Origin: a virus
UHGV virus genome: UHGV-1669866
Direction: 5' to 3' (one strand)
DNA length: 12,559 nt
Made by a program: the position numbers and the translations under genes. Positions 8,677-12,559 of the stretch are shown here, one piece after another; the first letter of the stretch is position 1, and the number at the start of each line of letters is the position of its first letter. The notes beneath the pieces are model-generated. The model searched no databases, was not told the origin of the DNA, and saw only the letters and a list, made by a program, of their open reading frames with translations.

Positions 8677-8983
8677 CTTCTACTCCGGCTTTTTTAGCAG
8701 CGAAGCGTTTGATAAGCGAACCAATCGAGTCAGTACCGATGTAGCCGATGAACACGCTCGTTATATAAGCGAGATTGCTACTTAGTCCGGCGAAGTCGAG
8801 AAGGTCACGAATGAACCAGGCGATAATGGCGCACATCGTTGCGTCGATTACTGTTTTTGTAAACGCACCGCCATTATATCTGCCGCGAAGGTACGCCATT
8901 GCAAACGCAAGGATTGCCCCGATGCCTTGTTCCTTTGCCGCGAGAATGGCGGCTAACAGGTCATGTTTTTCTGGCATCTTCAT
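8660..8983 (-). CDS. S: holin/antiholin, lambda S-type (S107/S105 dual start)
   Basis: Translation [39 protein letters not shown]... is near-identical to lambda S as recalled, including the Met-Lys-Met dual-start motif. Confidence 0.95.
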
Positions 8984-9240
8984 GTCTTACCCCCAATAAG
9001 GGGATTTGCTCTATTTAATTAGGAATAAGGTCGATTACTGATAGAACAAATCCAGGCTACTGTGTTTAGTAATCAGATTTGTTCGTGACCGATATGCACG
9101 GGCAAAACGGCATGAGGTTGTTAGCGCAACCTCCTGCCACCCACTTTCACGAAGGTCATGTGTAGAAAGCCGCAGCATAACTATCACTGATGAATTCAGG
9201 ATAGCCAGTGGCTACGGCTCAGGTTGGGTTGTGGCGGTCG
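8984..9240 (-). promoter_or_regulatory. lambda-like 5' leader upstream of S (region of the S translation-initiation control structure)
   Basis: The reverse complement of about 8984-9240 closely resembles my recollection of the lambda sequence immediately upstream of S; the similarity ends near 9240. Confidence 0.4.
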
Positions 9241-9515
9241 GTGCTGAACTCCGACTTAATGACGATAGGCGTGTACCGACGCCTCGTTTTACTTCCTCCG
9301 CTTTCACGGCTTCACCCTAGACCAGCTTTACGAAATCCTCGTAAACCTAACCGCGGCAGATATGACCGGCACGGTGTGCCATATCACGGACCGGCGGGTG
9401 TCTCGTTCACCTGATTAACGCATCAGCCTGCGTATTCACCACAACGATAAGAGTACTGCGCGGCACCTTTCACCAATTCCGCGAGGTCTGCGGGTTCAAT
9501 GCTCTTACCTGTTGT

Positions 9516-9566
9516 GCAAACAAAAAAGCCACCGTTGCAACTTAAGAGTCACTAACGGCAGCTTAC
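9516..9566 (-). terminator. tR'-like intrinsic terminator just downstream of the Q gene
   Basis: Minus strand: GCUGCCGUU, a 17-nt loop, AACGGUGGC (9-bp stem with two G-U pairs), then UUUUUUGUUUG. The following sequence TGCACAACAGGTAAGAGCATTGA resembles the lambda tR' flank as recalled. Confidence 0.5.
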
Positions 9567-9572
9567 CTTCTA

Positions 9573-9602
9573 ATTATGGCTAAATGGATAATTGCATGTC
9601 AA
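9573..9602 (-). promoter_or_regulatory. candidate sigma-70 late promoter (pR'-like) overlapping the Q stop codon
   Basis: Minus strand TTGACA (plus 9597-9602), 18-bp spacer, CATAAT (plus 9573-9578). Predicted start lies at about 9566, at the foot of the terminator hairpin. Confidence 0.45.
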
Positions 9603-10098
9603 GGTTTTTAACAGCAACATGCTTAACTTTCTCAACACGTTTACGCATTTTGAAAGCATTTTGCATTGGCTGGTATAAAACAAATAATGACGCTTTCAGG
9701 ATGTCGTCAATTTCGTTTCTACAGGTTGCCAGTGAAGGTTTTCTCCATCCCTCGCCACCACGTCCACACATCTTGCGTGGCTTTGCAGTCGCGTGATAGT
9801 AGGATGCAATTGCTCGCTTAGATGAACCATGAGCGTAGTAGCTGAGGAGGATGCCAAAGGCTTTCTTGTCAATGTACATGACGGAATCAACGACCTGAGA
9901 AATCAACATTCCATCATCATCATTACACATTGGCCTTGTCATAATTCTTCCCGGCTCTACGCTCTCCATGAACTTCGCTATTACGCTGCTCATGCGCTTT
10001 TCCAGACGACCTGAATAAACCCATGCGCCCCACAGTTCAAGCCAGCCATTCAGCCACTCGTGCTGCTCTTTGGTGAGGTTTAGTTCTCTTATGCTCAT
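9580..10098 (-). CDS. Q: late-gene antiterminator Q (phage 82 / Phage_antitermQ-type, 172 aa)
   Basis: Motifs LELWGAWV and RPMCNDDDGMLISQVVD resemble the 82-type Q family as recalled. Sits between ninH and the lysis cassette; ATGA overlap with the ninH stop; GAGGGGAA RBS. Confidence 0.75.
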   Translation of the reverse strand: MSIRELNLTKEQHEWLNGWLELWGAWVYSGRLEKRMSSVIAKFMESVEPGRIMTRPMCNDDDGMLISQVVDSVMYIDKKAFGILLSYYAHGSSKRAIASYYHATAKPRKMCGRGGEGWRKPSLATCRNEIDDILKASLFVLYQPMQNAFKMRKRVEKVKHVAVKNLDMQLSI

Positions 10099-10283
10099 CG
10101 TCTTCCCCTCTTGCCTTGTTTGACCATCAGGACGCCGTTAACTATTACGTGACGCTCACCTTTGCTGTCTCGGTTGTACTTGAGCACTGTTCCTCTTGCG
10201 CAGGAAAGCATCCTCGCCACTTCGGTCTGATTGCCTCGTGTCTGGATAAGAAGCTCTGGTATCGTTTGAATTGTGGCGTTCAT
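10095..10283 (-). CDS. ninH: NinH-like small DNA-binding protein (62 aa)
   Basis: IPELLIQTRGNQTEVARMLSCARGTVLKY resembles lambda NinH (Fis-like HTH) as recalled; position immediately upstream of Q matches lambda. Confidence 0.7.
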   Translation of the reverse strand: MNATIQTIPELLIQTRGNQTEVARMLSCARGTVLKYNRDSKGERHVIVNGVLMVKQGKRGRR

Positions 10284-10642
10284 GCGTTCTCCAGTTCGGT
10301 GATTTTTATTCCAAGCCGTCCGCCTGGGACTTTCACACCACGAATTACGCGAATGTCATCGAATTGCTCGTCGTCTTCCGCAAATCCGGCGTGGATAAGG
10401 GAGTCGAGTAAACCTTTCAGGATGTTGTCGAGGTCTCGGCGGCGGGAGTCTGGAACGTCTGCGATGACTTTGATGCGGAGTCGTGATTTGGTGAAAATGT
10501 CTAACTTAAGTTGGCGGATAATTTGCTGAACGTCTTTTCGGTATTTCTGGCCTTTATCGCTGATGTAGTATTGGCTTCCCCGTCTTCGCCAGTAGGTATT
10601 CACCGATGGCGGGTATGGAAGCACAAACTGATATTCGTTCAT
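10280..10642 (-). CDS. rusA: RusA Holliday-junction resolvase (120 aa)
   Basis: 120 aa with PYPPSVNTYWRRRG, RRRDLDNILKG and GGRLGIKITE motifs, matching E. coli RusA as recalled. Confidence 0.88.
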   Translation of the reverse strand: MNEYQFVLPYPPSVNTYWRRRGSQYYISDKGQKYRKDVQQIIRQLKLDIFTKSRLRIKVIADVPDSRRRDLDNILKGLLDSLIHAGFAEDDEQFDDIRVIRGVKVPGGRLGIKITELENA

Positions 10643-10929
10643 GACTTAATCTTCCCCTCCTTCAGCAGTATCGCCTGCGTCCTGATCACGCCTTCGAGGT
10701 GGTAAAGTCTGGCGTCTTTGTTGTCGAGATTATGGGTGCGTCGGTCGATTTCATCGTGACACGCGCTACAAGCCCATGCGCCGATCAGGTCGTCAGGCTT
10801 CATTCCCGTTCCGCAAATTCCAGCCATCCGGTAATGTGCCAGAACTGTAGTTTCAGGATTGCCATTGCATACGCCGTAAATACGTACCTGGCATTCTCTG
10901 CCGCGTGCTTCTTTGCGTAGGTTAGCCAT
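10639..10929 (-). CDS. ybcO: YbcO-like Cys-rich putative nuclease (DUF1364-type, 96 aa)
   Basis: RGRECQVRIYGVCNGNPETTVLAH...CSACHDEIDRRTH resembles DLP12 YbcO as recalled; directly upstream of rusA as in DLP12. Confidence 0.7.
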   Translation of the reverse strand: MANLRKEARGRECQVRIYGVCNGNPETTVLAHYRMAGICGTGMKPDDLIGAWACSACHDEIDRRTHNLDNKDARLYHLEGVIRTQAILLKEGKIKS

Positions 10930-11198
10930 TATGGTTCGCTCCAGTAATTCTCAATTGCAGCAGCCATTCTCTGCATCCACTCTGCCAGCTTTAACGCGGC
11001 TTCTCTTTCAGAACCACATTTAGGGAAATCCTTCATTTCCATGCTGGCCTTATATGTTCTGAATGCCAGGTCTCCGGTAATAACCAACTCCTGATCAAGC
11101 ACCGAGCGTTTATTCCGGTGTTGAACGTAATAGACAGATTCAGTCCGCATTTCTTCTCTGTCTTTTTTGAAGGAAATAAGCTCAGAGAAATCACTCAT
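10929..11198 (-). CDS. hypothetical protein (89 aa) in the nin operon
   Basis: ORF track 89 aa; its start overlaps the ninF-like stop (ATGAGTGA) and its stop overlaps the ybcO-like start (TAATG). No family recognised. Confidence 0.5.
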   Translation of the reverse strand: MSDFSELISFKKDREEMRTESVYYVQHRNKRSVLDQELVITGDLAFRTYKASMEMKDFPKCGSEREAALKLAEWMQRMAAAIENYWSEP

Positions 11199-11361
11199 CG
11201 TCTTCTTCCTCGTACATTGAGCTATTCGGATCGCTCATCAGATCTGCGCAGCAGTGCTCACACACGTGAACTTCCAGCACATGCAGCTTCTGACCGCAGT
11301 TAGCGCACGTTAAAGCTCGCTCGACACTTCCTTGTTCGTAACTTCGATTTTGGTCAATCAC
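11191..11361 (-). CDS. ninF: NinF-like small Cys-rich protein (56 aa, GTG start), absent from the ORF track
   Basis: Hand translation of the minus strand gives (V/M)[55 protein letters not shown], resembling lambda NinF as recalled. GTG at 11359-11361 preceded by GAGGAA; GTGA overlap with the ninE stop. Confidence 0.55.
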
Positions 11362-11540
11362 CTTGTTTTCCTCGCACGTTCTCTAAGCCACCGGATATCC
11401 CACAGGTGAGCCGTGTAGTTGAAGGTTTTTACGTCAGATTCTTTTGGGATTGGCTTGCGTTTATTTCTGGAGCGTTTCGTTGGAAGGTATTTGCAGTTTT
11501 CGCAGATGATGTCGGTGATGCTTCGTCGCTGTCGTCTCAT
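11358..11540 (-). CDS. ninE: NinE-like protein (about 60 aa from the MRRQRR start)
   Basis: [23 protein letters not shown]...[14 protein letters not shown] resembles lambda NinE as recalled. The internal ATG at 11540 follows the HNH stop directly; the ORF-track start at 11558 would add 6 residues overlapping the HNH gene. Confidence 0.72.
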
Positions 11541-12139
11541 GCCGCCCTGTCTCCCCATCTCGCTTTCATTTTTTCATTTGCAAATCGCCAGAATCTTCCT
11601 TTGTGATATGAGCTTTCGCCATTACAGCAACGACTAATTGACGAACTATCAAATCCTTCTCTGACAGCATCCATAGCTGCTTCATAATAAACCTCCTCCC
11701 CAGTTTTCATGTCAGTAGAAATAACAGCTTTACTGGCAGGATGATCACCACTAAATTTACCTAGCGATATAGGTATTCTTCCATTTTGTTTATATCCGTG
11801 CTTTGAGTTTTCAGAATGTGATACCCATTCAAGGTTTTCAGCCCTATTGTCATCTCTTTGCCCATTTTTGTGATTAACTACCAAGCCATCACAGAACCCT
11901 GTACAGAATGCTTTCGCAACTATCCTGTGGGCGCTGTATTTCTTACCGTATACCTTTATTTGAAGATATCCTGTCGACTTGCACTTGAATGGTTTTACGC
12001 TAGTGCCATTAATTATTTTCTTATATGGCCTCTGTCTGGTTGATGTTACTGTAACTTCCCTCGTAATAGACCTGAAATTTCCTTTATTGCTAACCTGATA
12101 AAATGGAATCCCTTCGATATCTACCCAAACCTCAATCAT
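11537..12139 (-). CDS. HNH homing endonuclease (NUMOD4 + HNH_3 type, 200 aa)
   Basis: N-terminal NUMOD4-like motif ([15 protein letters not shown]) and HNH_3-like core (HRIVAKAF...[25 protein letters not shown]). The gene lies in an AT-rich stretch that contrasts with flanking DNA. GGAGG before the ATG. Confidence 0.85.
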
Positions 12140-12548
12140 AATTCCTCCATTCGCTAAGATGAATTGAGTTCATGGCACAATATGCTTCTATGTAGTCCAT
12201 TATTTCGGATATTTTTTTTACAGATAGAGTCGCCGTACTCTCTCTGATGTTTATTAGCTCACCTTCTAACCCTGATATAATCTCAGGGTGCTGGTTGGTT
12301 GCAATCTGCCAACCAGAAACGAATAACCCCTTCCAAAACTCAATATTTCTTGCTTTTCCATGATATGTAGCCTTCTTACTTATTTCAGATAGCATCGCGT
12401 GAAGGCGTGCATTTTGCCGAATGCTGCGGTTGCGTTCCTGGATGGTCACTACGATTGGTTTGGTTGGGTCTGGAAGAATTTGCTGTATCGCGTGAATAGC
12501 GTTTTGCTGATGAATGGGGCTTCTTAGTTCAAACGTTAGTTTCCTCAT
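12132..12548 (-). CDS. ninB: NinB/Orf-family recombination mediator (138 aa), chimeric
   Basis: First about 42 residues (MRKLTFELRSPIHQQNAIHAIQQILPDPTKPIVVTIQERNRS) match lambda NinB as recalled; the remainder is divergent and AT-rich. AAGGTGA RBS before the ATG at 12548. Confidence 0.78.
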   Translation of the reverse strand: MRKLTFELRSPIHQQNAIHAIQQILPDPTKPIVVTIQERNRSIRQNARLHAMLSEISKKATYHGKARNIEFWKGLFVSGWQIATNQHPEIISGLEGELINIRESTATLSVKKISEIMDYIEAYCAMNSIHLSEWRNYD

Positions 12549-12559
12549 TGCTCACCTTC

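Follow-up and report, generated by a model that had tools for sequence, protein, structure and literature searches.

The window analysed here is a 12,559-nt stretch of the virus genome UHGV-1669866, which derives from a P22-like (HK620/Sf6-type) lambdoid phage or prophage and has all of its genes on the minus strand. In the nin operon of this phage, the distal part of ninB (orf) and the HNH endonuclease gene that follows it make up an AT-rich block of 855 bp, which occupies the place of 284 bp of lambda/HK022-type ninB. We consider it somewhat probable that this block is a free-standing homing-endonuclease cassette, propagated by intronless homing with co-conversion of a resistant ninB allele, in which cleavage of the target and the resulting drive are presumed steps. 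The reading builds on the anatomy of the block and its junctions, the family membership of the enzyme, the linkage of its gene to a foreign ninB segment, the existence of empty sites, the variety of genomic contexts and the purifying selection acting on the protein. The feature itself, an uncharacterised representative of a known type, is already present in annotated public genomes; the gain is interpretive and lies in the structure of the cassette.

Alignment to HK022 delimits the block. Homology is limited to positions 11188-11567 (97.9%) and 12423-12559 (92%); between these, codons 43-137 of the lambda-type ninB are gone from the window and the foreign DNA stands in their place. Of the lambda-type gene, only the head (codons 1-42) and the last nine codons survive; the latter, KARWGDRAA, now form the last nine codons of the HNH reading frame. 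The left junction falls immediately past the conserved RNRS codons (CGCAACCGCAGC), and the right junction 31 nt ahead of the old ninB stop. HK022 represents the empty site, with a 146-aa ninB followed directly by ninE. Judged by these alignments, the block is a replacement and not a simple insertion.

The composition of the block sets it apart from its surroundings. Guanine-plus-cytosine (GC) content is 38.9% in 11568-12422 vs 48.2% in the remaining window. In 200-nt windows, values range from 37 to 41% across 11600-12399 and from 45.5 to 53.5% across 10000-11699, except for a dip to 42.0% at 11000-11199. Of 2143 other 855-bp windows (mean 48.3%, standard deviation 1.5), none falls below 45.1%, placing the block about 6 standard deviations under the mean. 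As GC content at third codon positions (GC3) is low both in the HNH gene (32%) and in the 3' part of ninB (37.5%), compared with 47-56% in the neighbouring nin genes, the AT-rich island spans the 3' two-thirds of ninB in addition to the HNH gene.

A first-pass annotation, made from the sequence of the window, had described this region as an AT-rich island of horizontally acquired cargo, and had recognized in the end of the endonuclease a likeness to the C-terminus of lambda NinB, displaced into a new reading frame. Sliding-window GC and GC3 bear out the island, and its horizontal acquisition is supported. The alignments of 11537-11567 to HK022 and lambda likewise confirm the displaced tail, its residues being equal to those of lambda NinB and its 31 nt identical to the end of HK022 ninB. 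The same annotation had proposed that the endonuclease gene was inserted into the 3' end of a lambda-type ninB, truncating the latter to ...SEWRNYD. The lambda-type tail in frame at the end of the HNH open reading frame (ORF) does agree with such an event, as does a 7-nt match (GAATGGA vs GAGTGGA) near both junctions. Insertion in the strict sense is nevertheless refuted by the HK022 and lambda alignments, in which foreign sequence takes the place of 284 bp of lambda-type ninB; moreover, codons 43-138 are themselves AT-rich and only distantly related to the lambda-type protein, and ...WRNYD is the native end of their subfamily. We therefore regard a simple insertion as barely credible.

Two other origins were considered and rejected. 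No terminal inverted repeats or target duplication are found at the block ends, the repeats elsewhere being short and at chance level, and no transposase domain is present, which speaks against a transposon or insertion sequence (IS). An intron-encoded homing endonuclease is contradicted by the lack of a match to any Rfam family anywhere in the window and by the arrangement of ninB, the HNH gene and ninE as contiguous overlapping ORFs. Checks of the block for transfer RNA (tRNA) genes, promoters and terminators yielded nothing above chance.

Table 1. Coordinates of the cassette, its parts and the adjoining genes in the window.
Feature	Position	Strand	Basis
AT-rich mosaic cassette, 855 bp, in place of 284 bp of lambda/HK022-type ninB	11568..12422	-	HK022 alignment; GC 38.9% vs 48.2%
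Chimeric ninB (orf), 138 aa	12132..12548	-	Pfam NinB 2.2e-40 (residues 3-130 of 138); PHROG 72 NinB/Orf 2.1e-42
ninB codons 1-42, lambda/HK022-type, 5' homology arm ending at RNRS	12423..12548	-	91% to HK022, 86% to lambda over 126 nt
ninB codons 43-138, foreign NinB subfamily	12135..12422	-	~37-40% aa identity to lambda-type; always with HNH gene
ninB/HNH junction ATGATTGA, 8-nt overlap	12132..12148	-	GGAGG 12148-12144, HNH ATG 12139-12137, ninB stop TGA 12134-12132; read from sequence
Body of I-HmuI-like HNH gene, first 190 codons and two bases of codon 191	11568..12139	-	NUMOD4, HNH_3, I-HmuI similarity
Remnant of lambda-type ninB 3' end (last base of preceding codon, KARWGDRAA, stop), read in frame as HNH C-terminus	11537..11567	-	100% identity to HK022, 1 mismatch to lambda
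ninE	11358..11540	-	Pfam NinE 4.5e-43, match begins at residue 7 of longer ORF; junction same as HK022 ninB-ninE

The foreign codons 43-138, joined to the resident codons 1-42 at RNRS, rebuild a full-length NinB. They bear the signature of their subfamily (of the GLFVSGWQIAT...PEIxxGLEGE type, PEIVPGLEGEFINIREST) and are 56-85% identical to natural NinB proteins having N-termini of their own. The closest relatives of this segment occur in Yersinia, Pantoea, Mixta and metagenomes, and their C-termini are alike in being short (e.g. ...WRKYD and ...GGRYE). The NinB of HK620 type, whose gene has no HNH neighbour, ends equally short in ...RRYE, the last codons encoding a Shine-Dalgarno sequence and the overlapping start of the next gene. 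Given such native short ends both in the subfamily and in the HNH-less HK620 type, the endonuclease did not make the new ninB end, and the earlier view of the resident C-terminus SEWRNYD as a product of endonuclease insertion is not borne out. We also considered that the HNH gene had split off the C-terminal helix of NinB and thus given rise to the short end, several HNH ORFs having NinB-like tails. As a general rule this was rejected on account of the HNH-less ...RRYE end; the tail in the window is clearly lambda-type. Separately, the chimeric gene contains a homopolymer at 12212-12219 (T8 on the plus strand, A8 in ninB), in which the IMG/VR copies L022 and L029 have a 1-nt deletion, at ninB nt 330, that shifts the frame of their foreign-type gene (ninB'), representing either real inactivation or a sequencing error.

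The second gene of the cassette is a complete ORF of 200 aa (11537-12139, minus strand) located between the NinB and NinE genes. As first annotated, it encodes a complete NUMOD4/HNH_3 protein, both Pfam scores lying above the curated cut-offs: NUMOD4 at 1.4e-13 (51 bits, cut-off 23.4, residues 3-63) and HNH_3 at 8.2e-12 (45 bits, cut-off 24.8). The I-HmuI NUMOD-like model PF22083 matches weakly (19.3 bits vs a cut-off of 27). The best sequence match in the PDB is I-HmuI itself (1U3E; E=4e-14), with query residues 55-186 aligned to residues 36-170 of 174. An AlphaFold2 model built from 38 homologues, with a mean predicted local distance difference test score (pLDDT) of 88.8 and helices at 155-172, was compared with the PDB using Foldseek. 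The sole significant match was 1u3e_M (E=7.9e-13, probability 1.00, 190 columns), the next one having E=0.16. On the strength of sequence and model, the protein is I-HmuI-like and a predicted endonuclease, comprising a NUMOD4 domain, an HNH motif and a putative C-terminal helix-turn-helix-like domain.

With I-HmuI of Bacillus phage SPO1, the protein shares the N-terminal NUMOD4 beta-domain and the HNH beta-beta-alpha-metal motif of a three-part architecture (the third part, a C-terminal helix-turn-helix-like domain, being probable in the window protein), 29% identity over the 190 aligned columns, and the catalytic His and distal Asn. H90 and N111 align with H75 and N96 of I-HmuI, respectively; all 38 homologues have N98, N102 and N111, and at least 90% of them retain H90. 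In I-HmuI, His75 is reportedly catalytic and Asn96 metal-binding, while Asp74 is said to be a metal ligand. The two enzymes differ in their setting, I-HmuI being encoded in a group I intron of a DNA polymerase gene and the window gene being free-standing in the nin operon. They also differ in that the window protein, the activity of which is predicted, has Asn in place of Asp74 and carries the nine-residue NinB-derived C-terminal appendage. This tail lies outside the I-HmuI-like fold and is modelled as a helix at a pLDDT of ~63; the diverged SEN22 homologue has no NinB tail and ends in ...ERMAA.

Compared with homologues of 67-78% identity, the proportion of synonymous differences (pS) in the HNH gene is 0.80-0.88, i.e. 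saturated, and that of nonsynonymous differences (pN) is 0.13-0.21. Saturated pS combined with low pN indicates that the protein has long been kept functional by purifying selection. A role in anti-phage defence was rejected, as the only strong PADLOC match is a generic homing endonuclease model (PDLC03687, 1e-26); ZorE scored 0.002 over 30 residues, and NinB had no match. NCBIfam has no model matching the HNH protein. When the HNH alignment was used to scan species-representative genomes, no matches were returned, although this type of scan needs peptide patterns and is uninformative on absence.

The cassette fits closely into the translational organization of the operon. At its promoter-proximal end, the HNH gene has its Shine-Dalgarno sequence GGAGG inside ninB, 4 nt upstream of the ATG, and this arrangement of Shine-Dalgarno sequence, ATG and ninB stop recurs in diverged homologous loci. 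At its other end, the HNH stop (11539-11537) overlaps the ninE ATG (11540-11538) as ATGA, precisely as the ninB stop does in HK022, and the ninE Shine-Dalgarno sequence GGGGAGA (11556-11550) lies in the 31-nt ninB remnant. Since the HNH frame runs into these last 31 nt of the displaced gene, it ends at the old ninB stop and ATGA coupling to ninE is kept. A four-base overlap of the HNH stop with the next called gene was found in 8 of the 12 diverged homologous loci examined. The HNH gene is thereby threaded into the translationally coupled nin operon with the coupling left intact, and this coupling presumably matters.

The distribution of the cassette was surveyed in 5426 complete Escherichia coli genomes. 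Both the foreign ninB segment and the HNH body were found at 80 places in 77 genomes, and the two were linked at 80/80 of these places as well as in 65/65 phage records. The middle part of lambda-type ninB, on the other hand, is found 1491 times, in 1307 genomes, which puts the occupancy of such sites by the cassette at ~5%. Together with HK022, in which ninB leads directly into ninE, these places bear out the expectation of the first-pass annotation that related genomes without the insert exist; lambda and HK620 are likewise without the cassette. The block is at least 98% identical in Shiga toxin (Stx) phages, APC_JM3.2, IMG/VR loci and the 77 E. coli genomes, and its hosts include Sepvirinae Stx phages, P22-like phages and vB_EcoS_P27.

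Annotated carriers, with 98-99% nucleotide identity over ninB' and the HNH gene, are Stx2 phage 86 (gp72), Lahn2 (ORF200), vB_EcoS_P27, Stx2a_F723, many Stx2a phages and the P22-like APC_JM3.2. In their records the gene is called either "HNH endonuclease" or "hypothetical", and the cassette itself is not analysed. In phage 86, Lahn2, vB_EcoS_P27, Stx2a_F723 and APC_JM3.2, the junctions and the KARWGDRAA tail are the same as in the window, and the downstream neighbour alone differs, being dam or ninC instead of ninE. Over all carriers, the gene after the cassette is of at least five kinds (ninE, dam, ninD, ninC or another HNH gene) and the 31-nt tail sequence changes with it, while the 5' arm ahead of the cassette is of either lambda class or HK022 class. 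The last polymorphic site among carriers in this arm is nt 114 of ninB. Decayed copies exist as well, and we count them as decay typical of selfish endonuclease genes. In L032 (1663-3465), an IS5-like transposase is inserted after codon 46 of the endonuclease gene; the Mixta homologue L043 (2910-4012) stops early, at 123 aa, ahead of an IS1 transposase gene; and the E. coli alleles P0114 and P0116 are frameshifted, with the C-terminus read in another frame.

Under the homing model that we favour, the enzyme would nick or cut lambda-type ninB alleles without the cassette during lytic growth. The break would then be repaired from a cassette-bearing genome, with homology supplied by the 126-nt 5' ninB arm and the short 3' tail. 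Such repair would copy the endonuclease gene along with the adjoining foreign ninB segment, which, being divergent at the nucleotide level, would be uncuttable. The outcome would be intronless homing with co-conversion of a resistant allele, that is, marker exclusion. Of the hallmarks of intronless homing, we observe presence/absence variation at a fixed site (80 vs 1491 places) and a co-inherited divergent stretch between the arms 12423-12548 and 11537-11567. Because the two ninB types do not align at the nucleotide level across the replaced region, no single cleavage-site candidate stands out.

This model has precedents in other phages. The free-standing endonucleases SegF, SegG, SegB and MobE of T4-like phages bring about intronless homing and marker exclusion (PMC2988022, PMC2790892, PMC2330249). 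As in the window, their genes adjoin a conserved gene, vary in presence and absence, and are inherited together with a divergent flank between conserved homology arms. Differences are that the window host is a temperate lambdoid phage and not a virulent T-even phage, that its enzyme is of the I-HmuI-like HNH type instead of the GIY-YIG type (Seg), that its cleavage of the empty allele is presumed, and that its ORF takes over the stop codon and tail of the displaced gene. In lactococcal Skunavirus, I-HmuI-like HNH genes occupy fixed recurrent insertion sites and cluster by site, with marker exclusion shown for some (PMC12724721). These genes are likewise free-standing and their products share ~31-35% identity with the window protein (tblastn), but they reside in other hosts and at other insertion sites, and have no link to ninB.

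Several points weigh against homing. The cleavage target and endonuclease-dependent inheritance are both presumed. Given lambdoid mosaicism, ordinary or relaxed homologous recombination could spread the module without the endonuclease. The low occupancy of lambda-type ninB sites and the length of the right homology arm, only 31 nt, are further difficulties. The pairing of ninB' with an HNH gene is ancient and extends to native ninB' genes, which fits plain vertical linkage. In the protein, the residue preceding the catalytic His is Asn89, at the position of Asp74 in I-HmuI, although the family as a whole has Asn as its consensus here. Finally, pairwise divergence is 0.25-1.1% in the cassette vs 9.7% in the 5' arm, yet a recent sweep deduced from this low diversity was rejected by a control: lambda and HK022 ninB (L037:245-685 vs L002:1501-1941), both HNH-less, are only 83% identical in their first 126 nt and ~96% in the rest, i.e. 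they too differ more in the arm (17%) than in the middle (4%).

Some of these points are shared by an alternative in which the ninB'-HNH block is a passive mosaic module, one of many that can be exchanged within the nin region. Ordinary or relaxed homologous recombination (Red, Erf, RecET, RecA) acting on short stretches of conserved sequence would move it between genomes without any contribution from the endonuclease, which may have been retained for a different role, for instance to damage the genomes of competing phages. The junctions do both coincide with short conserved stretches (RNRS codons on one side, the ninB tail on the other), HNH-less ninB genes have a mosaic boundary in the same 5' region, and occupancy is only ~5%. 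Furthermore, the nearest genome-level relatives of the window, vB_EcoP-611R6, 683R2 and HK620, are 98% identical to it across positions 1-11540 (~11.5 kb), a homology that ends precisely at the ninE start codon (11540). Beyond this codon they carry a third ninB allele, of 136 aa and without an HNH gene, which shows routine swapping of modules at gene boundaries. Lambdoid phages are known to recombine diverged sequences by means of Red-type recombinases (PMC2327257, PMC3945230). However, passive shuffling leaves unexplained that the endonuclease gene is intact and under strong purifying selection in lineages with saturated synonymous divergence, and that the foreign ninB segment never occurs without the HNH gene among E. 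coli and Salmonella-type copies. Nor does it account for the accumulation at one locus of HNH genes from two unrelated families, together with others whose reading frames begin with the 5' end of ninB or dam. We consider this alternative rather unlikely, while giving it more weight than any other rival of homing.

Related loci extend the history of the pairing. Native ninB'-type genes of 61-78% identity, from seven lineages, are followed by an HNH gene in the same overlapping position, and in two of the seven this gene belongs to an unrelated HNH_3-AP2 family (~20% identity). More distant ninB'-type members (59-62%; L047 and L048) have no HNH gene. Homologues of the window HNH protein with 57-69% identity are encoded directly behind other Orf-family subfamilies (L051, L053, L033, L034 and L050). 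Two other upstream Orf types were found, a Klebsiella-type 143-aa PHROG 72 protein and a DUF1367/PHROG 319 YbcN-like protein; upstream of a Pseudomonas aeruginosa homologue lies the gene for a 112-aa protein with no family assigned. HNH identities do not follow Orf identities, and the HNH and Orf trees are incongruent. From this pattern, we read the slot behind orf in the nin operon as a permissive one that has apparently been invaded recurrently by selfish genes.

The same neighbourhoods could instead reflect a functional two-gene module of a nickase and an Orf-family mediator, where a nick would provide the single-stranded substrate on which NinB loads RecA or a phage annealase, and where selection would act on recombination or replication. 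In favour of such a module, the HNH family occurs directly downstream of three very different Orf subfamilies (ninB', the Klebsiella 143-aa PHROG 72 type and YbcN/DUF1367 PHROG 319). The HNH start overlaps the upstream stop in the ninB' and Klebsiella types, and in the YbcN/DUF1367 type the stop precedes the HNH ATG by 7 nt. Orf domains fused to an HNH motif have moreover been described in Gram-positive phages (PMC4118853). Against it, there is no HNH partner for ~95% of lambda-type ninB, for HK620-type ninB and for some ninB'-type genes (L047, L048); the two trees are incongruent; the unrelated HNH_3-AP2 gene can fill the slot; and IS-interrupted or frameshifted copies persist. As all Orf subfamilies share one position in the nin operon, positional homology alone accounts for the neighbourhood, and we deem a functional module improbable.

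Other HNH genes have entered the region in different ways. In L038 (2910-3458) and L039 (2910-3461), the unrelated HNH_3-AP2 gene stands behind native ninB'-type genes with the same Shine-Dalgarno-ATGAT start, and its product ends in an extension of ~20 residues that resembles the C-terminal helix of NinB (...QAIDWARRFGETKRAA). A second cassette is present in L028 (1934-3008; IMG/VR UViG_2751185961_000005; corresponding to window positions 12435-12452), in which codons 1-32 of a lambda-type ninB are fused in frame to a different HNH_3+AP2 gene, giving an ORF of 222 aa. Behind this gene comes a recoded ninB N-terminus (MKCVKYHLTNESIRYNAIQYLRTCDLDIIVEFKQ|RNRS...), so that 595 bp stand for 18 bp in a mirror image of the window layout. 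NCBI lists the same protein as E. coli/Shigella NinB (P0002). A third cassette, in L030 (3582-4654), has an HNH_3 (+AP2-like) ORF that opens with the first nine dam codons (MTIKSNTPA); the dam gene behind it has a recoded N-terminus (MIKHKSETPKEVRDCWQTP...). An HNH homing-endonuclease ORF of a P22-like phage similarly shares its frame with a fragment of the invaded gene; there, as in L028 and L030, the fusion is at the endonuclease N-terminus, whereas that in the window is C-terminal.

If the enzyme is active, the cassette would provide a clear example of intronless homing among temperate lambdoid phages, Shiga-toxin phages included, with a selfish nuclease that overwrites part of the ninB of its competitors and brings its own uncuttable replacement. 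Mosaicism in the nin region would thereby gain a further source, driven by the endonuclease, and co-resident prophages would possess a natural system of marker exclusion. By borrowing the start and stop signals of displaced genes, such elements may escape polar effects in operons with tight coupling; the design recurs in related loci at the 5' ends of ninB and dam. Should the functional pair prove true instead, the two genes would form a nick-and-load module for the initiation of recombination, which would explain both the presence of the HNH family behind three diverged Orf subfamilies and the parallel Orf-HNH fusions of Gram-positive phages.

In the direction of transcription, the window encodes ninB (12132-12548), the HNH gene (11537-12139), ninE, ninF, an 89-aa ORF, ybcO, rusA, ninH, Q, lysis genes, terminase and head genes. 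The ninE ORF as called mechanically spans 11358-11558 (66 aa), with the NinE family match starting at residue 7. The real ninE likely comprises 60 aa from the ATG at 11540, which overlaps the HNH stop. A smaller GC dip (37.5%) at 9500-9699 coincides with the promoter-distal end of Q and the Q-holin intergenic region, and has no tRNA or Rfam match. The 89-aa ORF (10929-11198) fills the gap between ninF and ybcO; it belongs to no Pfam family, has PHROG 1258 (unknown function) as its sole match, and is kept in 611R6 as a hypothetical protein.

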